Of a stretch of DNA of 64,000 nucleotides, positions 6,388 to 24,998 are shown in pieces. The stretch lies in the IMG/VR virus record IMGVR_UViG_3300046167_000659, positions 2,608 to 66,607 of that record. The stretch is one strand, 5' to 3'. The position numbers were made by a program, and so were the translations under genes. Source of the stretch: a virus. Position 1 is the first letter of the stretch. Each line of letters opens with the position of its first letter. Below the pieces are notes generated by a model that worked only from the letters and a program-made list of their open reading frames with translations, was not told the origin of the DNA and searched no databases.

Positions 6388-6416
6388 AAGTTATTTAATT
6401 TAATTGTTAATAATTG

Positions 6417-6489
6417 TTGTCTCACTAGGGATCGAACCTAGACTCTTTGGTACCAAAAACCAACGTGTTGCCAATTACACCATGAGACA
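6417..6489 (-). tRNA. tRNA-Gln(UUG), CCA not encoded
   Basis: TGTCTCA acceptor pairs with TGAGACA; D arm TGGTGTAATTGGCAACAC; anticodon arm TTGGT-TTTTGGT-ACCAA; T arm CTAGG-TTCGATC-CCTAG. Confidence 0.93.
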
Positions 6490-6496
6490 TTTGTTA

Positions 6497-6537
6497 TTAC
6501 ATATATATTATCCGAAGACAATCGTATTTAGTTTGTA
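6497..6537 (-). promoter_or_regulatory. 41-bp early promoter-like motif, copy 1
   Basis: TACAAACTAAATACGATTGTCTTCGGATAATATATATGTAA, 7 nt upstream of tRNA-Gln. Confidence 0.8.
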
Positions 6538-7947: not shown

Positions 7948-8260
7948 ATGTTTATTCTTCTATATATTTTGCAATTTCTTTACATGTTTCTAAAATGTCT
8001 TCGAAGTATAGATTATCACGTAGATCATCTAAGCCGTCTTCGTCTGAGTACATAATAGTACTTAGTAAGCTGTCTAACTCTTGATAAAGGTATTTCATAT
8101 TTAGTAAGTTTTAAATTTTTTAGCAATTTGGTAGACATCATCTACATCTTGTTCGTCGTAATTTTCATGGTTTTGTGACCAGTCTCGTAAGACATAGTAT
8201 ACAAAAGCGCAGTCTTGTTCTGTTAATCCTTTAATTTTCATAGTTATAATTTTTTATTTG

Positions 8261-8301
8261 TTACATTAATATTATCCATTAGTCGTCGTATTTTGTTTGT
8301 A
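8261..8301 (-). promoter_or_regulatory. 41-bp early promoter-like motif, copy 2
   Basis: TACAAACAAAATACGACGACTAATGGATAATATTAATGTAA. Confidence 0.8.
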
Positions 8302-8422
8302 CATCTCGCTTGTTGTTCTTATGTTGTCTGTTACTTTTACAATAAGGACAGCTTCCGTTGTTTCTGCAAGTTTTATCAAACCTTTTTGAACCAGTGTAGG
8401 GCTTTTTTTTAGTCCTGCTCAT
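8279..8422 (-). CDS. Small basic Cys-containing protein (47 aa)
   Basis: MSRTKKKPYTGSKRFDKTCRNNGSCPYCKSNRQH; below the ORF-track size cut-off. Confidence 0.6.
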   Translation of the reverse strand: MSRTKKKPYTGSKRFDKTCRNNGSCPYCKSNRQHKNNKRDVQTKYDD

Positions 8423-8426
8423 CTAA

Positions 8427-8699
8427 TTAATTAAGATCTGCTAGTTTATACTCGCCTGATTCTATTTTAACTCTAGTGTCTGCAATACCTTCACCTAAAA
8501 ACTCGTTACGATATTTACTAGTTGTACGTGAGTAGTCCCAATAGTAATCATCTAACGTTATTTTACCATTATTGTCACGTAAAGCAATAACACTGTCATA
8601 ACTTTGAAAATAAGTTCCGTAGTTCGTATATATAACGAACTGATTAGCTACAGGTCTTCCTGAGCGGTTGCTTGTCATTTGTCTAACTTTTGCTGTCAT
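8427..8699 (-). CDS. Hypothetical protein (true start probably 8699, MTAKVRQM)
   Basis: VANQFVI...FQSYDSVIA...WDYSRTTSKYRNEFLG; the upstream extension in the track overlaps the mini-tmRNA. Confidence 0.7.
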   Translation of the reverse strand: MTAKVRQMTSNRSGRPVANQFVIYTNYGTYFQSYDSVIALRDNNGKITLDDYYWDYSRTTSKYRNEFLGEGIADTRVKIESGEYKLADLN

Positions 8700-8711
8700 A
8701 TTTAATTGTTT

Positions 8712-8792
8712 TAGTGGAGGTGGAGAGATTCGAACTCTCTTCCGCAATAGTTCCATATAGGCTTTCTATCACGTCAATACCAGGTCACCCCC
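8712..8792 (-). ncRNA. Mini-tmRNA: tRNA-like domain only, no tag reading frame
   Basis: GGGGGTG/CACCTCC acceptor with G3-U70 and A73; unpaired D loop ACCTGGTATTGA; helix CGTGATAG/CTATTGCG closed by a 15-nt loop; GAA linker; T arm GAGAG-TTCGAAT-CTCTC. Confidence 0.8.
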
Positions 8793-8795
8793 GTG

Positions 8796-8871
8796 TGTGC
8801 AGTCATTTCCTAAGCGCGGTGCACCACTGTCGTTAGACCGGTGCGCGTCTTTGTTATTTATTCGCTGCACA
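8796..8871 (-). ncRNA. Putative structured small RNA (array element 4)
   Basis: Closing stem TGTGCAG/CTGCACA; internal hairpin GCACC-G-GTC-TAAC-GAC-AGT-GGTGC. Confidence 0.55.
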
Positions 8872-8875
8872 TTTG

Positions 8876-8963
8876 TAACTAGTGGGGGAATCGAACCCTC
8901 ATACTCGTCAGTAGTAATGAACTCTGGTTAATTTAATAACTCCTGTTGCATCCACACCTAGTT
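8876..8963 (-). ncRNA. tRNA-like RNA without canonical D or anticodon arms (array element 3)
   Basis: AACTAG/CTAGTT acceptor-like stem, T arm GAGGG-TTCGATT-CCCCC, 3' ACAA. Confidence 0.6.
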
Positions 8964-8966
8964 GCC

Positions 8967-9039
8967 GCTAGAGTCGGCCTCTGAGAGCAAACGCAGAATT
9001 TATTCGTCGCGATTGCCCTGATTAAACCTCTCATCTAGC
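8967..9039 (-). ncRNA. Putative structured small RNA (array element 2)
   Basis: Nested stems GCTAGA/TCTAGC, TGAGA/TCTCA, GCAATCGC/GCGTTTGC. Confidence 0.55.
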
Positions 9040-9044
9040 TATTT

Positions 9045-9115
9045 ACTACCTTAGAGGATCTTCGTTAGCTTAACAATTTAAAATACCATTGCCGTACTAA
9101 TCCCTCCACAGTAGT
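9045..9115 (-). ncRNA. Putative structured small RNA (array element 1)
   Basis: Nested stems ACTAC/GTAGT, GAGGGAT/ATCCTC, TTAG/CTAA, CAAT/ATTG. Confidence 0.45.
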
Positions 9116-9303
9116 TACTTACGCCGCCAAGCTCTGTGCACTGATGCACTTACTTCTTGGCTGACTATTTGTATTGTATTGCCTGTCTTGTGCTCGATAA
9201 TAGGTACATACGAATATGTTTGAGTTGTCGAGTGCTCAACACACGTTTTATAACCTAATTCCAACCTCACAGGGTGTACTTCATTTCCACATTTACAATA
9301 CAT
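9115..9303 (-). CDS. Small zinc-finger-like protein
   Basis: CKCG...RLELGYKTCVEH; first gene after promoter copy 3 and directly upstream of the RNA array. Confidence 0.65.
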   Translation of the reverse strand: MYCKCGNEVHPVRLELGYKTCVEHSTTQTYSYVPIIEHKTGNTIQIVSQEVSASVHRAWRRK

Positions 9304-9322
9304 AGTTTATTATTTTTATTTG

Positions 9323-9363
9323 TTACATATATATTATCCAGAGATAATCGTATTTTGTTTGTA
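9323..9363 (-). promoter_or_regulatory. 41-bp early promoter-like motif, copy 3
   Basis: TACAAACAAAATACGATTATCTCTGGATAATATATATGTAA. Confidence 0.8.
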
Positions 9364-10257
9364 ATAATCAATATCTACAAGATCCACTTGTTCTAGTAAT
9401 TTAATCACAGTTTGGTAGACAGTGTAATCTCTTAGATTATAAAAGTCATCACCGTTTAAATCATAGTCCGCTATGGACCATTCCACCTGTTCTTTCAGGG
9501 TTTCTAGTATAACATCAGCTTGATACTGAGCTATCTCATCTATTTCGTTCATTTTACTCATTTTACATTTTTCTTTACCCAGTTAATAATATATTCTAGT
9601 CTATCCATTTCGTTTGGAATTAGTATACGCTTGTAATTGTATATAATTGTATCGATGTTACCTCTACCGTGATGATAACCTGTCCAGTATTTGTTTATAG
9701 ATTTAGTTTTTTTGTTTATTTGATACAATCTATCAAGGTTAAAGTTGTTAATTCTTATATAACCTGATTGATAAGACTTTATTTCACGCCCATCATTTAA
9801 TAAGAACGTAGATGTTCCGTTTTTGTTTACTTCTATTAGTTTCATAGTTTATTTGTTTTATAGTTTACTTTGTAATCATTCCATCGAGCAGTGTAAGCGA
9901 ACGACTTGCCTTTAGCGAAAGAGCTTTTTTGCCTTGTAACCACGGCGTTCCACTCTTTATCAGTCAGTCCGCTACACACCTCGTGTTGGTGCTTGAGTCT
10001 ATGCCCTCTTGCACGATTTCTTCTCGCGTCTATCATAGTTTGACACGCTTCCTTCATATTCATATGGCGAAAGGGTTTTCAGTTTTCTCGACAAAAGTTA
10101 GACCTTTGTAGTTGAACCACTCAGTGATACCTTCTTGGTCTTTGTCTTCGTTGTAGATAAACGCGAAGCGTTTTGGTAACTCGCCAACAGGATAACCTTT
10201 GTAATCTTGGCCATTAAATCTGATGGTTGTTGAGTTGATAAATTTAATTTTTTTCAT
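9334..10257 (-). CDS. Four overlapping small hypothetical ORFs (9334-9561, 9558-9845, 9842-10063, 10060-10257)
   Basis: 4-nt ATGA-type start/stop overlaps indicate a coupled operon. Confidence 0.7.
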
Positions 10258-11260: not shown

Positions 11261-11410
11261 AGTTATTTAGTTTAGTAGAAGTCGTAGTAGATATCGATTA
11301 CTTTAGATTTTTGTTCGTCAGTTAATTTATCAAAGTCAGTATCGAAAAGATTCCACGAGATTTTTAGTAGAGTATAAGATTTAGTACACATAGTTATTTG
11401 TTTTTATTAG

Positions 11411-11451
11411 TTACATTTATATTATCTAAAGATAATCGTATTATATTTGTA
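11411..11451 (-). promoter_or_regulatory. 41-bp early promoter-like motif, copy 5
   Basis: TACAAATATAATACGATTATCTTTAGATAATATAAATGTAA. Confidence 0.75.
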
Positions 11452-11525
11452 GACATTGGTGGAATCGAACCACCTCACAAAGTAGAGCTCACGTAGTCAA
11501 AATGCAGAGTGAAACCGTTATGTCT
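11450..11525 (-). ncRNA. tRNA-like RNA without canonical D or anticodon arms
   Basis: AGACAT/ATGTCT acceptor-like stem, perfect T arm GGTGG-TTCGATT-CCACC, 3' ACAA. Confidence 0.6.
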
Positions 11526-11581
11526 TTATTTCTATCCAGTTTGATGTCCCACTTCATGGTTCGGATAGTCACCATATTTAT

Positions 11582-11836: not shown

Positions 11837-11854
11837 AGTTATATTTTTTATTTG

Positions 11855-11895
11855 TTACATATATATTATCCAATAAGAAACGTATTTAGTTTGTA
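11855..11895 (-). promoter_or_regulatory. 41-bp early promoter-like motif, copy 6
   Basis: TACAAACTAAATACGTTTCTTATTGGATAATATATATGTAA. Confidence 0.8.
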
Positions 11896-13338: not shown

Positions 13339-14451
13339 ATGGCAAGAATTAAAACATATAACATCGATGCTGACATATCTTCAGAAGATAAAGTAGTAGG
13401 TACAGATGGAAACCCAGGTAATAACTTTGGAAAAACAAAAAACTTCACAATAGGGGCGTTATCTGGATTTATAGGGGCTGGATCTCAAGGTCCCGTTGGT
13501 CCCGCAGGAGAACCAGGAGCTACTGGACCTGCTGGAGCAGACGGAACAGACGGAGTAGACGGAGTAGATGGTGCACAAGGACCTGCTGGTAATGACGGAG
13601 CAACTGGAGCACCTGGACCTGCTGGTCAAACAGGTCCTGCTGGGGCAACTGGAGCACAGGGTGCTACGGGTGACGTGGGTCTAACTGGAGCAACTGGGGC
13701 TCAAGGAGCTGTAGGTCCTCAAGGAGCTATTGGTGCAACTGGTGCGCAAGGAGCTACTGGAGCAGATGGAACATCAATAAACGTATTAGGTACTAAACCT
13801 ACCGTAGCTGATTTACCCGCAACAGGTAATACAGTGGGAGATTTGTGGGTTATAGATCAAACAGGTGGAGGTGCCACGGCTGGTGATGGTTATGTTTGGA
13901 CTGCTGGAAATACTTGGTTGAACATTGGGCCTTTAAGAGGACCTCAAGGAATACAAGGCGTACAAGGTCTACAGGGAATTCAAGGCATTAAAGGAGATCA
14001 AGGTGATCAGGGACCACAAGGTATACAAGGTTTACAAGGGGAGCAGGGTTTACAAGGAGATCAAGGAGCTGCGGGAACAAACGGAACAAATGGAGAACAA
14101 GGAATACAGGGAATTCAAGGAATACAAGGTCAGCCTGGACAAAATGGTAGCAACGGCCCACAGGGTGAAACTGGAGCTCAAGGTGAAACCGGAGCGACTG
14201 GCCCGCAAGGCCCAATAGGATTGACAGGTCCTCCGGGAGCAGTAGAATCAGTTAACGCTGGGGTAGGAATAACTGTAACGCCAAATACTACAGGCAACGT
14301 AATAGTTTCGGCTCCAGATGCAGTTTTAAATAACCAAGATACTTTTACAACCCCTAAAGTGAAATACATCGTTTCTTTAACACAAGCGGAGTATGATGGT
14401 TTAGTAAGCGGTGGAACAATAAACGCTAACACATTATATATAATATTATAA
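13339..14451 (+). CDS. Collagen-like fibre protein
   Basis: Two long Gly-X-Y runs; C-terminal LTQAEYD.L.....NTLYII motif seen in phage fibres. Confidence 0.85.
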   Translation: MARIKTYNIDADISSEDKVVGTDGNPGNNFGKTKNFTIGALSGFIGAGSQGPVGPAGEPGATGPAGADGTDGVDGVDGAQGPAGNDGATGAPGPAGQTGPAGATGAQGATGDVGLTGATGAQGAVGPQGAIGATGAQGATGADGTSINVLGTKPTVADLPATGNTVGDLWVIDQTGGGATAGDGYVWTAGNTWLNIGPLRGPQGIQGVQGLQGIQGIKGDQGDQGPQGIQGLQGEQGLQGDQGAAGTNGTNGEQGIQGIQGIQGQPGQNGSNGPQGETGAQGETGATGPQGPIGLTGPPGAVESVNAGVGITVTPNTTGNVIVSAPDAVLNNQDTFTTPKVKYIVSLTQAEYDGLVSGGTINANTLYIIL

Positions 14452-19889: not shown

Positions 19890-20030
19890 ATGAAATCAAA
19901 AGGATTAGGGGATTCAGTAGAAAAATTTACAAAAGCAACTGGTATTAAAAAAATTGTTGAAACAGTAAATCCCGACTGCGGCTGTGGTAAAAGAAAAGAT
20001 AAGTTAAATAAAATATTTCCATATAAATGA
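19890..20030 (+). CDS. Small protein GLGD...DCGC (copy 2 at 22617-22757)
   Basis: MKSKGLGDSVEKFTKATGIKKIVETVNPDCGCGKRKDKLN; below the track cut-off. Confidence 0.6.
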   Translation: MKSKGLGDSVEKFTKATGIKKIVETVNPDCGCGKRKDKLNKIFPYK

Positions 20031-20425
20031 AAAAGATTTGGCAATGGCTTACAGGTTCCGTCATAAAAGAAGTTGGCGAGGTTTTAGATAACCTTACGAC
20101 TACTAAAGAAGAGAAACTAGAGGCTCAGCGCTTAATCACAGAGATACTAGAAAAAGCAGATAAAGAAGCTCAAGAGCAGGTTACAGCTAGGTGGAAGTCT
20201 GATATGGAGTCTGATAGCTTTTTATCTAAGAACATACGCCCTATGGTACTTATATACTTAACTGTTATATTTACTGTATGCGCGTTTTTTGACGGTAACG
20301 TAGGAGAGTTCACTATAGCTGAAGAATACGTGCCAATATTTCAAACTTTACTAGTAACTGCATATGGAGCTTATTTTGTAGGTCGTACTTGGGAGAAGGC
20401 GAAAGCTATAACAAAAAAAGATTAA
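20027..20425 (+). CDS. Holin (GTA 3TM-like) (copy 2 at 22754-23152)
   Basis: RWKSDM.SDSFLSKNIRP, hydrophobic helices, AYFVGRTWEK. Confidence 0.75.
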   Translation: MKKIWQWLTGSVIKEVGEVLDNLTTTKEEKLEAQRLITEILEKADKEAQEQVTARWKSDMESDSFLSKNIRPMVLIYLTVIFTVCAFFDGNVGEFTIAEEYVPIFQTLLVTAYGAYFVGRTWEKAKAITKKD

Positions 20426-21142
20426 ATGGCTAGAATTAGTACATACGCAATAGATACAGTAGTAACACTACTAGATAGATGGATTGGCACCGATTCTAAT
20501 AGCGGTAATGCTACAAAAAACTTTACAGCACAATCAATAGCGGACCTGTTTAACGACAATGGCTCCATAGGTATTGTTAATCAAAACAACTTTAAATTTC
20601 AAACCAACCTAACTGGAGGTAGAAGACCAGGTACAGTGAGTCTTATATCTGGAGGTGGAAATAATACTGCCTTTAGTGACTTAACTAGTTTTAGAATAAG
20701 CAAAGATTCTTTAGCTAATACTTTAGCTTCAAACTACCTACTTACACTAGTTGATGAACCAATCATGCTAGCTCAAGTAGATGACTTAAATAATTTTGGC
20801 GTATACAAGCTTGATTCTTTAACACAAGACGTTACTGAAACAGATTTTTATAACGCCAATCTTACATTAATAGAATCAAATGGCTATTTGTTTTCTGAAG
20901 AAACTTATGGTTTAATAACTTATCCTAAAGCTAAAGAAGATGAAAAAGATAAGAACTATGTGCATCCACAAGACCAAGCATCTGCTACGTGGACTGTTCA
21001 ACACGACTTAAACAAATTTCCTTCAGTAACTACCGTTAATACAAATAATATAGAAATGTACGGTGAAGTTGTGTTCAATGACTTAAATAACTTAACAATA
21101 AACTTTTCAGCAGCGTTCTCAGGACAAGCTTTCATAAACTAA
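20426..21142 (+). CDS. Virion structural/fibre-associated protein (copy 2 at 23153-23869)
   Basis: N-terminus shared with the collagen fibre; C-terminal W.V.H.LNKFPSV...F...FSG.AFIN. Confidence 0.65.
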   Translation: MARISTYAIDTVVTLLDRWIGTDSNSGNATKNFTAQSIADLFNDNGSIGIVNQNNFKFQTNLTGGRRPGTVSLISGGGNNTAFSDLTSFRISKDSLANTLASNYLLTLVDEPIMLAQVDDLNNFGVYKLDSLTQDVTETDFYNANLTLIESNGYLFSEETYGLITYPKAKEDEKDKNYVHPQDQASATWTVQHDLNKFPSVTTVNTNNIEMYGEVVFNDLNNLTINFSAAFSGQAFIN

Positions 21143-21155
21143 CAAAAACAAACTA

Positions 21156-22301
21156 ATGGCAATTAATTTTTTAAACAACGTTGATTACAATAAAAATCAA
21201 CTTTTAAACCCAAGAATTCAAAACGAAGCAAACGACACCGCTGCTGGAACACCTGTAGAGGGTCAGTTATATTATAACACAACAAGCAACGTGCTTAAAG
21301 TAGGTAGAGAAGTAACACCTGTTACAAACCCTCCAACTTACCAATGGGCTGAAGTATCGAGCTCTTACGGATTCAGTTTAAGTGATAGTGCAAACCCTGC
21401 TATAACCGGTTCGATAGCATCAGGCGACACTGTTAAAATAGCTGCAACTGAAGATTTAACATCTAATTTAACAGGTGAAACAACTACAGCTAAAACCCTT
21501 ACTGTAGGCTTAAAAGTAGATGGAGGCGTTGGTATATCTGATAATTATGTGGTTAATCAAGGTTCGGCTACAGCTGCAGCGGATGATACAATACCTTTCA
21601 ACAACTACACGGATGTAGGCACTCCTGCTACAAGTACCAATGTGGTTAAGAAAACAACTTTTGGAAGTATACCAGTAGATGCTTTGACATTAGTTAAAAG
21701 CTATATTGATAGCTCTGTTACTGGAGGTTTAATATATCAAGGTGGTTATGATGCAGTCAATAACCAGCCTGATTTAACAACTTCGCCAAACACTATTAAA
21801 AAAGGCTGGACTTACACAGTAACTGTAGGTGACACGTTTTTTGGAGAAGTTCTTGAGGTTGGGGATGTACTTATAGCAGAACAAGATGATCCAAGCTCTT
21901 TAGCGGACTGGACAACAGTTCAAAACAATATAGATATTGCTACAGCTGGAACTGACACTGGCGCTGGCGCCGCTGTCATTGGGATATCTCGCTACGATGA
22001 AGACGACTTTACAGTTAGCGCCTCTGGTTTTGTAGAACTAAAATCAACGTCTGCAACTGGTGTAATTACAGCAGGTTCTTTATCTGGAACTGTGAATCAC
22101 ACTTTTGGATTAAATACATTAGTTCAAACTATAAACTCTTCTGGAGATACAGTGCACTGTGATGTTACTAGAACAACAACAAGTGGAGTGGGAACCCCTT
22201 CAACTTCTGTAGCTACTATAGCTGCAGCAGAAGCAACAGACATTACTATCCTAGTTAAAAAAAGGAACAGTGTCTTTCAAAATGAAAGGCTACGGATCTA
22301 A
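21156..22301 (+). CDS. Fibre/structural protein, copy 1 with C-terminus altered by the duplication junction
   Basis: Identical to 23883-24998 up to ...ITILV. Confidence 0.65.
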   Translation: MAINFLNNVDYNKNQLLNPRIQNEANDTAAGTPVEGQLYYNTTSNVLKVGREVTPVTNPPTYQWAEVSSSYGFSLSDSANPAITGSIASGDTVKIAATEDLTSNLTGETTTAKTLTVGLKVDGGVGISDNYVVNQGSATAAADDTIPFNNYTDVGTPATSTNVVKKTTFGSIPVDALTLVKSYIDSSVTGGLIYQGGYDAVNNQPDLTTSPNTIKKGWTYTVTVGDTFFGEVLEVGDVLIAEQDDPSSLADWTTVQNNIDIATAGTDTGAGAAVIGISRYDEDDFTVSASGFVELKSTSATGVITAGSLSGTVNHTFGLNTLVQTINSSGDTVHCDVTRTTTSGVGTPSTSVATIAAAEATDITILVKKRNSVFQNERLRI

Positions 22302-23882
22302 AATATAAATTATGGCATACCAGCAAGAAAACTCACCTTTCGCAAGGGTTAGAAAAACTACTAAAGGTAAGGGAAGGAATTTTAGAACAACAGAAGAAGG
22401 CGCTGGTATGACTGAAGCTGGTGTAAAAAAATATAAAAAACAAAACCCAGGTAGTAAATTAAAAACAGCAGTAACGAAATGCGATGTAAAAGTTGGAACA
22501 GCGGCTTATAAAAGACAAAAAGCATTTTGTTCTAGATCTAAAAGCTGGACAGGTAAAAGAGGTAAAGCTGCTAGAAAAAGATGGTGCTGTAGTAGACATT
22601 CTTAAAATATAATAAAATGAAATCAAAAGGATTAGGGGATTCAGTAGAAAAATTTACAAAAGCAACTGGTATTAAAAAAATTGTTGAAACAGTAAATCCC
22701 GACTGCGGCTGTGGTAAAAGAAAAGATAAGTTAAATAAAATATTTCCATATAAATGAAAAAGATTTGGCAATGGCTTACAGGTTCCGTCATAAAAGAAGT
22801 TGGCGAGGTTTTAGATAACCTTACGACTACTAAAGAAGAGAAACTAGAGGCTCAGCGCTTAATCACAGAGATACTAGAAAAAGCAGATAAAGAAGCTCAA
22901 GAGCAGGTTACAGCTAGGTGGAAGTCTGATATGGAGTCTGATAGCTTTTTATCTAAGAACATACGCCCTATGGTACTTATATACTTAACTGTTATATTTA
23001 CTGTATGCGCGTTTTTTGACGGTAACGTAGGAGAGTTCACTATAGCTGAAGAATACGTGCCAATATTTCAAACTTTACTAGTAACTGCATATGGAGCTTA
23101 TTTTGTAGGTCGTACTTGGGAGAAGGCGAAAGCTATAACAAAAAAAGATTAAATGGCTAGAATTAGTACATACGCAATAGATACAGTAGTAACACTACTA
23201 GATAGATGGATTGGCACCGATTCTAATAGCGGTAATGCTACAAAAAACTTTACAGCACAATCAATAGCGGACCTGTTTAACGACAATGGCTCCATAGGTA
23301 TTGTTAATCAAAACAACTTTAAATTTCAAACCAACCTAACTGGAGGTAGAAGACCAGGTACAGTGAGTCTTATATCTGGAGGTGGAAATAATACTGCCTT
23401 TAGTGACTTAACTAGTTTTAGAATAAGCAAAGATTCTTTAGCTAATACTTTAGCTTCAAACTACCTACTTACACTAGTTGATGAACCAATCATGCTAGCT
23501 CAAGTAGATGACTTAAATAATTTTGGCGTATACAAGCTTGATTCTTTAACACAAGACGTTACTGAAACAGATTTTTATAACGCCAATCTTACATTAATAG
23601 AATCAAATGGCTATTTGTTTTCTGAAGAAACTTATGGTTTAATAACTTATCCTAAAGCTAAAGAAGATGAAAAAGATAAGAACTATGTGCATCCACAAGA
23701 CCAAGCATCTGCTACGTGGACTGTTCAACACGACTTAAACAAATTTCCTTCAGTAACTACCGTTAATACAAATAATATAGAAATGTACGGTGAAGTTGTG
23801 TTCAATGACTTAAATAACTTAACAATAAACTTTTCAGCAGCGTTCTCAGGACAAGCTTTCATAAACTAACAAAAACAAACTA

Positions 23883-24998
23883 ATGGCAATTAATTTTTTA
23901 AACAACGTTGATTACAATAAAAATCAACTTTTAAACCCAAGAATTCAAAACGAAGCAAACGACACCGCTGCTGGAACACCTGTAGAGGGTCAGTTATATT
24001 ATAACACAACAAGCAACGTGCTTAAAGTAGGTAGAGAAGTAACACCTGTTACAAACCCTCCAACTTACCAATGGGCTGAAGTATCGAGCTCTTACGGATT
24101 CAGTTTAAGTGATAGTGCAAACCCTGCTATAACCGGTTCGATAGCATCAGGTGACACTGTTAAAATAGCTGCAACTGAAGATTTAACATCTAATTTAACA
24201 GGTGAAACAACTACAGCTAAAACCCTTACTGTAGGCTTAAAAGTAGATGGAGGCGTTGGTATATCTGATAATTATGTGGTTAATCAAGGTTCGGCTACAG
24301 CTGCAGCGGATGATACAATACCTTTCAACAACTACACGGATGTAGGCACTCCTGCTACAAGTACCAATGTGGTTAAGAAAACAACTTTTGGAAGTATACC
24401 AGTAGATGCTTTGACATTAGTTAAAAGCTATATTGATAGCTCTGTTACTGGAGGTTTAATATATCAAGGTGGTTATGATGCAGTCAATAACCAGCCTGAT
24501 TTAACAACTTCGCCAAACACTATTAAAAAAGGCTGGACTTACACAGTAACTGTAGGTGACACGTTTTTTGGAGAAGTTCTTGAGGTTGGGGATGTACTTA
24601 TAGCAGAACAAGATGATCCAAGCTCTTTAGCGGACTGGACAACAGTTCAAAACAATATAGATATTGCTACAGCTGGAACTGACACTGGCGCTGGCGCCGC
24701 TGTCATTGGGATATCTCGCTACGATGAAGACGACTTTACAGTTAGCGCCTCTGGTTTTGTAGAACTAAAATCAACGTCTGCAACTGGTGTAATTACAGCA
24801 GGTTCTTTATCTGGAACTGTGAATCACACTTTTGGATTAAATACATTAGTTCAAACTATAAACTCTTCTGGAGATACAGTGCACTGTGATGTTACTAGAA
24901 CAACAACAAGTGGAGTGGGAACCCCTTCAACTTCTGTAGCTACTATAGCTGCAGCAGAAGCAACAGACATTACTATCCTAGTGCAGAAAATAGGGTAA
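23883..24998 (+). CDS. Fibre/structural protein, copy 2 (native end)
   Basis: T/S/G-rich beta protein; EGQLYYNTT; GGLIYQGGYDA. Confidence 0.7.
   Translation: MAINFLNNVDYNKNQLLNPRIQNEANDTAAGTPVEGQLYYNTTSNVLKVGREVTPVTNPPTYQWAEVSSSYGFSLSDSANPAITGSIASGDTVKIAATEDLTSNLTGETTTAKTLTVGLKVDGGVGISDNYVVNQGSATAAADDTIPFNNYTDVGTPATSTNVVKKTTFGSIPVDALTLVKSYIDSSVTGGLIYQGGYDAVNNQPDLTTSPNTIKKGWTYTVTVGDTFFGEVLEVGDVLIAEQDDPSSLADWTTVQNNIDIATAGTDTGAGAAVIGISRYDEDDFTVSASGFVELKSTSATGVITAGSLSGTVNHTFGLNTLVQTINSSGDTVHCDVTRTTTSGVGTPSTSVATIAAAEATDITILVQKIG

Follow-up and report, generated by a model that had tools for sequence, protein, structure and literature searches.

The sequence studied here comes from IMG/VR virus record IMGVR_UViG_3300046167_000659, which has 66,607 bases, an estimated completeness of 64%, and a GC content of ~33%. 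The window that we analyzed is a stretch of 64,000 nt from this record. The record carries genes for a primase, an Erf-like annealing protein, a sigma-like factor, a DNA ligase, and a ribonucleotide reductase, and its terminase large subunit has relatives in 90 records of annotated phages, including 68 from Flavobacterium phages, 15 from Cellulophaga, 2 from Tenacibaculum, and 1 from Maribacter. The closest match from a cultured phage has 44% identity. The phage is a marine tailed phage of the Flavobacteriia-phage type, and because the terminase relatives are nearly all phages of Flavobacteriia, its host is probably a marine flavobacterium.

Results

A non-coding RNA array in an early operon

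The array that is our subject belongs to a block of small, early-type genes on the minus strand, and a repeated 22-mer punctuates this block. Five minus-strand copies of the 22-mer are present at up to 3 mismatches, where 0.00 are expected, and we infer that it functions as a phage promoter. The features of the region are as follows.

9317-9338, minus strand: promoter-like 22-mer, the copy nearest the array, ahead of the zinc-finger-like ORF; the operon presumably starts here
6491-6512, 8255-8276, 11405-11426, and 11849-11870, minus strand: the other copies of the promoter-like 22-mer (up to 3 mismatches)
9115-9303, minus strand: 62-aa zinc-finger-like ORF, with a stop codon that abuts unit 1 and two Cys pairs in its relatives
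9045-9115, minus strand: unit 1, a 71-nt long hairpin RNA with internal loops
8967-9039, minus strand: unit 2 (type "2b"), a 73-nt stem-closed RNA with conserved ends and a variable inner hairpin
8876-8963, minus strand: unit 3, a tRNA-like RNA without a D arm
8796-8871, minus strand: unit 4, a stem-closed RNA of 76 nt whose 5′ motif is invariant and whose 3′ motif is conserved, with an inner hairpin that varies
8712-8792, minus strand: unit 5, a tmRNA reduced to its tRNA-like domain, 81 nt in all
8427-8699, minus strand: gene of 90 aa on the downstream side of the array (phrog_21575, of unknown function)

Read along the minus strand, the order is the 22-mer at 9317-9338, the zinc-finger-like ORF at 9115-9303, the array, the 90-aa gene, and the next 22-mer at 8255-8276, which agrees with a first-pass annotation that had put the array behind a promoter copy and a small zinc-finger-like gene. 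A consensus scan of the minus strand from 8200 to 9700 found no terminator-like site, and this, along with the promoter-like repeat upstream, upholds the earlier description of a non-coding array within an early operon. The zinc-finger-like ORF falls in no family in Pfam and PHROG scans, and its protein has no tblastn match among annotated phages. Of 64 testable instances of unit 3 (duplicate contigs included), 32 are preceded by a homologue of this ORF at a distance below 900 nt, so its link to the array is frequent but not obligatory. The same Pfam and PHROG scans gave no RNA-related family for the flanking small ORFs, and the only ARAGORN call in the window is a true tRNA-Gln at 6416-6489.

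The array itself is a minus-strand, non-coding, modular set of units within this operon, and two of its members are tRNA-like. The first-pass annotation had tiled the region with five minus-strand units separated by spacers of only 3-5 nt, and both the coordinates and the spacers were borne out. It had also proposed that the ends of each unit pair with each other, and folding confirms this for all five. GC is enriched as claimed, at 0.405-0.475 over 8600-8999 compared with mostly 0.28-0.35 in neighboring windows. There is likewise no credible ORF: the frames wholly within the array are at most 33 aa long, apart from one 44-aa ORF on the plus strand (8797-8931). A 109-aa frame does start within unit 5, but its relatives align only from the ATG at 8699.

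When compared with 200 shuffles, the minus-strand folds of units 1 through 5 have z-scores of -3.19, -2.39, +0.61, -2.20, and -2.24, and the corresponding values for the opposite strand are -0.50, -0.85, -0.29, -2.49, and -0.16. Strand specificity is thus seen for units 1, 2, and 5 but not for unit 4. The expectation that the units would fold better than shuffled controls therefore held for units 1, 2, 4, and 5 (z from -2.20 to -3.19) but failed for unit 3, whose folding energy is no better than chance and whose support comes from conservation instead. The comparison of strands bears on the notion that the region acts as DNA or in cis, as a replication origin, a packaging site, or a UTR structure regulating the flanking genes. 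The location between two genes of one operon would suit such an element, as would the equal folding of unit 4 on either strand, but units 1, 2, and 5 fold well on the minus strand only, many of the conserved pairs are G-U and hence valid solely in RNA of the minus strand, and the units move independently of the flanking genes. We regard this reading as barely credible.

ARAGORN calls none of the five units, and the scan of each unit against Rfam that the first-pass annotation had recommended identified unit 5 as a tmRNA but left units 1-4 without a family. Units 1, 2, and 4 match no Rfam family, Rfam E-value scans of the window otherwise gave chance-level T-arm matches, and scans of seven related loci gave nothing beyond tmRNA and tRNA. 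In DNA similarity searches against annotated phages, neither the window cassette nor the cassette of related locus L101 had a match. In a search of the rest of the window for antisense targets, the array's best match is 14 nt long with an E-value of 0.08, which is chance level.

The sole direct repeat in the stretch is a 9-mer found at 8856-8864 in unit 4 and at 8998-9006 in unit 2, and the array stretch has no tandem repeats. With no tandem repeats and this single 9-mer as a direct repeat, we rejected a repeat array of the type III antitoxin RNA or CRISPR-like kind. Hammerhead, k-turn, and tetraloop-receptor readings of the conserved motifs were also rejected, owing to misfits at the consensus positions.

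Unit 5 is a tmRNA reduced to the tRNA-like domain

Unit 5, which had been noted earlier as a "mini-tmRNA," matches the Rfam tmRNA model RF00023 with 64.1 bits, well above the gathering cut-off of 47, at an E-value of 1.1e-22. The match spans model positions 1-374 and includes both ends, with 304 internal positions replaced by 11 nt. As in the canonical bacterial tmRNA (RF00023), unit 5 has an acceptor stem (7 bp) with G3-U70, a GG-containing D-loop analogue, a P2 helix, and a T arm. The P2-equivalent helix is 7 bp long and is closed by a small hairpin. Unlike the canonical molecule, unit 5 is missing 304 of the 374 model positions and has no resume codon, tag reading frame, pseudoknots, or encoded CCA. 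The mRNA-like domain is absent, no ORF of any kind lies inside, and at only 81 nt, there is no room for pseudoknots PK1-PK4, all of which are missing. At the 3′ end, the discriminator A is followed by C-U-A. The tRNA-like domain is all of the tmRNA that unit 5 retains.

A pattern search (70-95 nt overall, starting with GGG and with the alanine-type 3′ strand fixed) found such domain-only tmRNAs of ~80 nt in at least 120 viral stretches. Their GC contents span 0.40-0.74, and hence they come from many kinds of phage. ARAGORN calls a tRNA at 5 of 119 pattern loci, and these five may be tRNAs. A plain MAFFT alignment of 76 domain-only tmRNAs analyzed with RNAalifold gave 12 pairs, in the P2 helix and the T stem, and 11 of the 12 show compensatory changes. 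We built a covariance model (R1) from the MAFFT alignment and re-aligned 101 matches, 86 of them distinct; in the R1 alignment, which is fitted to the model and so favors structure, with the plain MAFFT/RNAalifold result as the unfitted control, 94.1% of cells are paired compared with 60.7% in shuffles, the covariation score is 0.765 compared with 0.163 for shuffles and 0.085-0.125 with partners slid, and both sides change in 18 of 22 pairs.

The G3-U70 pair calls for a pattern-independent sample, since in the 91 pattern-derived sequences it was fixed by the pattern and is hence not evidence. Among the 24 distinct tmRNA-like elements at loci found via unit 3, which were reached independently of the pattern, 20 have G3-U70 and 4 have A3-U70. 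No alanine charging would be possible for these four, and this fits titration of a host factor rather than a need for charging. The 5′ 21-mer of unit 5 occurs in eight bacterial contigs of mixed taxa, and the matches include three full-length tmRNAs (two in Pseudomonadales MAGs and one in a Bacteroidetes MAG) and one domain-only element. Because the taxa are mixed, the 21-mer is uninformative on the host and gives no support for mimicry of a specific host tmRNA. An SmpB gene is absent from the record, which is 64% complete.

A phage precedent exists for unit 5. Hudson, Lau and Williams (2014) list the tmRNA of mycobacteriophage DS6A as "TLD only," and they report that a molecule similar to the DS6A form, whether chargeable or not, strongly inhibits tmRNA, perhaps via SmpB titration (PMC4131195). 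According to a 2025 tmRNA database paper, the DS6A form inhibited endogenous tmRNA in Escherichia coli (PMC11915505). Unit 5 fits the definition of the CDS-less (DS6A-type) tmRNA as given there, with its ends joined directly, no coding part, and a phage genome around it. From the DS6A precedent, we propose that unit 5 would compete with the host tmRNA for SmpB, and probably also for AlaRS and EF-Tu, and that the competition for SmpB would damp trans-translation and tagging during infection.

The main rival to SmpB titration is that unit 5, charged with alanine and acting with host SmpB, frees stalled ribosomes without adding a degradation tag, which would spare phage proteins when phage mRNAs are cut. 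The retention of G3-U70 and the full acceptor/T-arm helix in 20 of the 24 independently found relatives speaks for this, as does the conservation of the P2 helix and small hairpin over 86 distinct sequences, seemingly beyond what simple titration needs. The database paper also notes that organelles with CDS-less tmRNAs have SmpB as well and that these tmRNAs are believed to assist when mRNAs are incomplete (PMC11915505). However, unit 5 offers a ribosome nothing for resuming, as it has neither a resume codon nor a frame, G3-U70 is lost in 4 of the 24 relatives, and DS6A, the sole tested phage example in these two sources, inhibited tmRNA (PMC4131195, PMC11915505). We thus consider tag-less rescue unlikely and titration of SmpB the better account of unit 5.

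Unit 3 is a tRNA-like frame around a variable insert

The 3′ half of unit 3 is present in 10 + 62 viral stretches, and the family comprises 55 distinct full units of 52-117 nt. The first-pass annotation had seen a T arm in unit 3, and the T arm is indeed there, within a tRNA-like frame common to the 55 sequences. On its 5′ side, the frame has a 6-bp acceptor stem, a G-U, and a short GG-containing D-loop-like stretch without a D stem. At the position of the anticodon arm is an insert, or "cargo," of 0 to ~60 nt with a hairpin of its own, and this is variable among the 55 sequences. The 3′ part of the frame then has a 4-bp hairpin with a GACG loop at the variable-arm position, a T arm, the 3′ acceptor strand, and a discriminator A. 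The T stem is 5-6 bp long with a canonical T loop, and the acceptor and T helices together come to 11-12 bp, as in tRNA.

The closing pair of the variable arm is C-G in 27 of the 55 sequences, U-A in 27, and U-G in 1, and the search pattern fixed only one side of this pair. In the acceptor stem, both sides change in four of six pairs; because the 5′ end of each unit was picked by complementarity, the 100% acceptor pairing is partly by construction. The 5′ 6-mer nevertheless always lies immediately before the conserved G-U/GG motif.

By the features that define a tRNA, unit 3 has an acceptor stem stacked on a T arm, the T-loop consensus, and a discriminator base, but it has no D stem and no conserved 7-nt anticodon loop. 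It receives no ARAGORN call and no match to Rfam tRNA (RF00005) even at E-values up to 10, and CCA is not encoded in its genomic 3′ context. Judged from its predicted structure, unit 3 resembles the upper half of a tRNA yet is not a tRNA.

Differing covariation in hairpin units 1, 2, and 4

Unit 1 has 10 homologous loci, and 7 of the 22 pairs predicted from 10 sequences have compensatory changes. Unit 2 is the weakest of the five, as its 5 homologues give 16 predicted pairs with just 1 compensatory change. Unit 4 has 13 distinct relatives that share an invariant 5′ motif containing the 9-mer mentioned above, and compensatory changes are seen in three of the six pairs of its closing stem (closure was required at extraction, and for units 3 and 4, closing-stem pairing is partly a product of how the search was constructed). 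An unpaired motif said to be shared by units 2 and 4 was thus confirmed in the window as this 9-mer, but it is altered or absent in the relatives of unit 2 and so is not conserved there. Likewise, the covariation looked for at homologous loci was found for units 1, 3, 4, and 5 and is almost lacking for unit 2 (1 of 16 pairs).

These results also bear on whether the array consists of functionless, decaying remnants of tRNA or tmRNA genes or of attachment-site debris. ARAGORN and the Rfam tRNA model reject units 1-4, as they might a remnant, and phages often carry tRNA clusters and ssrA fragments, as stated in PMC9004378. Yet compensatory changes maintain helices in every family except unit 2, the scaffolds hardly vary over 55 to 86 distinct sequences, the two tmRNA ends both occur and are connected by a covarying helix, as they would not be in a 3′-only attachment-site fragment, and the units are found in RNA-library contigs (see below). 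We find decay highly improbable. The covarying helices, the strand-specific G-U pairs, and the near-invariance of the scaffolds over dozens of sequences make both the pseudogene and the DNA-element readings unlikely.

Units and hairpins are exchanged among related phages

Every unit of the array recurs in other viral contigs of the Flavobacteriia-phage type, in differing combinations. With the downstream 90-aa gene (phrog_21575) or unit 3 as the anchor for finding related loci, we scored twelve family motifs over the loci reached and found 35 motif architectures among 66 arrays (loci on the same contig were counted separately). The order in the array is kept, running from the zinc-finger gene through a small hairpin, a hairpin called "fA," unit 1, units 2a and 2b, unit 3, "X," a second "fA," and unit 4 to the tmRNA-like element, and it is within this conserved order that members come and go.

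The exchange extends to the inside of the units. The inner hairpin of unit 4 in the window is also found inside the unit-3 scaffold of locus L008, and the "fA" hairpin sits on a plain stem in L084 and L091 and in a unit-2a frame in L009. Longer tmRNA-like elements hold modules in the P2 loop, and in L109, the module is a whole unit-4-type element within a domain-only tmRNA. By these comparisons, both the predicted units and the hairpins inside them form interchangeable modules in related phages.

The turnover bears on a reading, raised in the first-pass annotation, in which the units and hairpins serve as anti-defense decoys that mimic host tRNAs or other RNAs and absorb tRNA-targeting or RNA-sensing defense nucleases. 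Phages that are otherwise close have rapidly diverging hairpin content (35 architectures among 66 arrays), the array lies in the early region, and the acceptor/T-arm mimicry is intact, all of which counts in favor of such decoys. However, anticodon nucleases usually target the 7-nt anticodon loop, which none of the units retains, and no defense system or target has been identified. As a general account of the array, we judge decoys of this kind decidedly unlikely. Apart from any particular target, an arms race would be expected to shuffle hairpins quickly between close relatives in this way.

Array units in RNA libraries and candidate processing signals

Twenty public runs contain part of the 1-kb stretch around the array, and six of these are on record as RNA. 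Four marine RNA libraries were examined, and their contigs contain array units; all of the data are contigs, which cannot prove RNA ends, and DNA is possible in RNA libraries. A variant array is seen in two of the runs, X17 and X18, which share a joint that places unit 4 beside unit 1. Records of 65 letters from X18 fall entirely inside 9050-9114, in unit 1. Binned depth in X18 is zero for 8200-8760 and 9322-9700 but non-zero for the bins from 8761 to 9321; since these gaps in cover are in contig data, we draw no conclusion from them.

A 118-letter record in X18 covers 8875-8963, which is unit 3. Beyond 8875 in the RNA sense, it has C-A-A where the genome has A-A-A, and with the templated C at 8875, it reads discriminator-C-C-A compared with C-A-A in the genome. 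The string after the C-A-A resembles what we take to be a sequencing adaptor. A CCA-like end is what CCA addition after 3′ trimming gives, and we see it as a hint of that, as it could also be encoded in that related strain. Unit 3, unit 5, and the true tRNA-Gln have a common 3′ context, namely, the discriminator A, then C, then A or U, then A. For the tRNA-type end processing put forward in the first-pass annotation, this shared context and the one CCA-like contig end from a related strain are faintly suggestive.

Discussion

The explanation that we favor, and think probable though by no means assured, is that the array is co-transcribed and cut by host tRNA-processing enzymes, that its tmRNA mimic competes for SmpB, and that its tRNA-like parts scaffold variable hairpins. 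In this model, transcription would start at the repeated phage promoter and include the zinc-finger-like gene, and the tRNA-maturation machinery of the host would cut the transcript into units. RNase P would cleave on the 5′ side of units 3 and 5, the tRNA-like members, whose 3′ ends would be trimmed and receive CCA after the discriminator A, while cuts in the A/U-rich spacers would release the intervening hairpin units. The tRNA-like parts would supply processing signals and stability, and the variable hairpins would be the working parts, with the binding or titration of host proteins as the best guess for what units 1-4 do.

A bolder version, which we offer tentatively and with some doubt, is that the domain-only tmRNA and the tRNA-like frames of units 2a, 3, and 4 are natural "tRNA scaffolds" that display a library of hairpins shuffled by recombination. 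The host tRNA machinery would excise, CCA-tag, and stabilize the units, and the hairpins would be fast-evolving decoys or aptamers against host proteins, including SmpB and perhaps defense or RNA-decay factors. If this were true, the use of domain-only tmRNAs against ribosome rescue would be common among viruses rather than an isolated oddity.

The anatomy given in the first-pass annotation is correct, and its functional reading is plausible as a hypothesis. The annotation had also ranked the array as an undescribed system, and this was overstated in part. A tmRNA reduced to its tRNA-like domain is known from DS6A (PMC4131195, PMC11915505), so unit 5 is a new member of a known, little-documented kind. 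Full-text literature searches, whose coverage is incomplete, turned up neither widespread viral domain-only tmRNAs nor such arrays, and the tables of the tmRNA database may list further domain-only forms from phages. As far as these searches reach, an array with interchangeable hairpins in tRNA-like frames is undescribed.

As described in the DS6A papers, the DS6A tmRNA is of the same class as unit 5, phage-borne and with no coding part. It differs in that it comes from a different lineage of phage and host, whereas unit 5 is the last unit of a multi-RNA array, and the unit 5 class is found in at least 120 viral stretches with the P2 helix and small hairpin conserved; we have compared the two by description only. 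CDS-less tmRNAs also occur in jakobid mitochondria and some plastids, as noted in the database paper (PMC11915505), and these too retain the tRNA-like domain (~65 bp in plastids) after loss of the mRNA-like part. Unlike unit 5, the organellar forms are vertically inherited, are thought to act with imported SmpB, are non-viral, and belong to no array.

Other known systems are related to the array as a whole. The Y RNAs (YrlA) of bacteria and phages are non-coding and have a tRNA-like module, as here, but they are encoded beside Ro60 (TROVE) genes, whereas the record with the array has no TROVE gene, and the Rfam Y-RNA families have no match in the array at E-values up to 10. In murine gammaherpesvirus, tRNA-like elements drive the processing of attached hairpin RNAs, and laboratory "tRNA scaffolds" are used for RNA expression. 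In both, the tRNA-like part gives processing and stability to a hairpin, but one is from a eukaryotic virus and the other is artificial, so the likeness is one of analogy only.

Phage tRNA genes are usually read as codon-usage helpers, and the array shows tRNA mimicry put to another use, as it holds a tmRNA stripped to its SmpB-binding part along with a tRNA-like frame that does not decode and bears variable hairpins. Should the model of processing and titration hold, this would be a simple and testable route by which a phage interferes with ribosome rescue, a class of ~80-nt viral RNAs missed by annotation (as by ARAGORN for all five units here), and a natural counterpart to the engineered tRNA scaffold. 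Given the rapid shuffling of its hairpins, the array is also a good place for seeking RNA-based counter-defense.

Another phage example bears on the presumed mode of release. Species 1 and 2 of phage T4 are small stable RNAs other than tRNAs that are transcribed together with the T4 tRNA cluster and freed from a tRNA-containing precursor by host tRNA-processing enzymes, and their function is unknown. The array would be like them in its mode of release, but its tRNA-like members are non-decoding and its units are modular and shuffled. Domain-only tmRNAs can also have tRNA genes as neighbors, as 24 of the 119 pattern loci have another tRNA gene on the same strand within 500 nt.

Reach of the domain-only tmRNA class

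A variant sequence pattern matched elements resembling the domain-only tmRNA, which consists of the tRNA-like domain alone, in four unrelated viral contigs (L092, L094, L096 and L095), one of which is high in GC. These predicted elements show that the class reaches beyond the acceptor sequences fixed in the main pattern search. A domain-only tmRNA scoring 73.7 bits with R1, the covariance model built from the class alignment, is also carried by L282, a contig 1660 bp long in the genome_contigs collection whose MAG is labelled Alphaproteobacteria, and the window's own element closely resembles it. L282 is probably a phage fragment that was binned into a bacterial MAG.

Structured elements of related arrays

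Arrays related to that of the window contain a conserved, structured RNA, here termed RNA 'X', at the following positions:

L008:2366-2500
L019:1133-1210
L025:205-330
L009:2715-2860

Its closing stem covaries, two single-stranded motifs are near-invariant, and a single peripheral hairpin is of variable length, a layout like that of a riboswitch or ribozyme; RNA 'X' had no match in Rfam at E up to 0.5. Two related loci carry mini tRNA-like units of 55–59 nt, made up of an acceptor stem, one hairpin and a T arm:

L019:1245-1303
L025:366-500

These units are single or duplicated, and the arrays that host them have no zinc-finger gene.

Within unit 3, the tRNA-like RNA without a D arm, the insert of about 20 loci (L099, L107, L110, L113, L114, L116, L134, L140-L142, L144, L150 and others) holds a near-invariant 16-nt loop motif, 'K', which is presented in every case by a covarying stem and looks like a putative binding or pairing site.

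Other features of the window

6416-6489, minus strand, tRNA-Gln (anticodon UUG), the sole canonical tRNA of the phage
11451-11533, minus strand, sixth tRNA-like unit, with a 6-bp acceptor stem and a T arm, then A-C-A-A
20027-22301, plus strand, three-gene set (132, 238 and 381 aa)
22754-24998, plus strand, successive three-gene set (132, 238 and 371 aa)

The tRNA-Gln is also present in locus L004, and in the window it lies immediately downstream of a promoter-like 22-mer copy (6491-6512, minus strand). The sixth unit, which drew no ARAGORN call, is 94–100% identical to sequences in L101, L099, L091 and L140; it lies immediately upstream of another 22-mer copy. The nearly equal ORF lengths of the two three-gene sets suggest that a structural or tail-fibre module was duplicated in tandem. 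A collagen-like 370-aa ORF (13339-14451) lies upstream of both sets.
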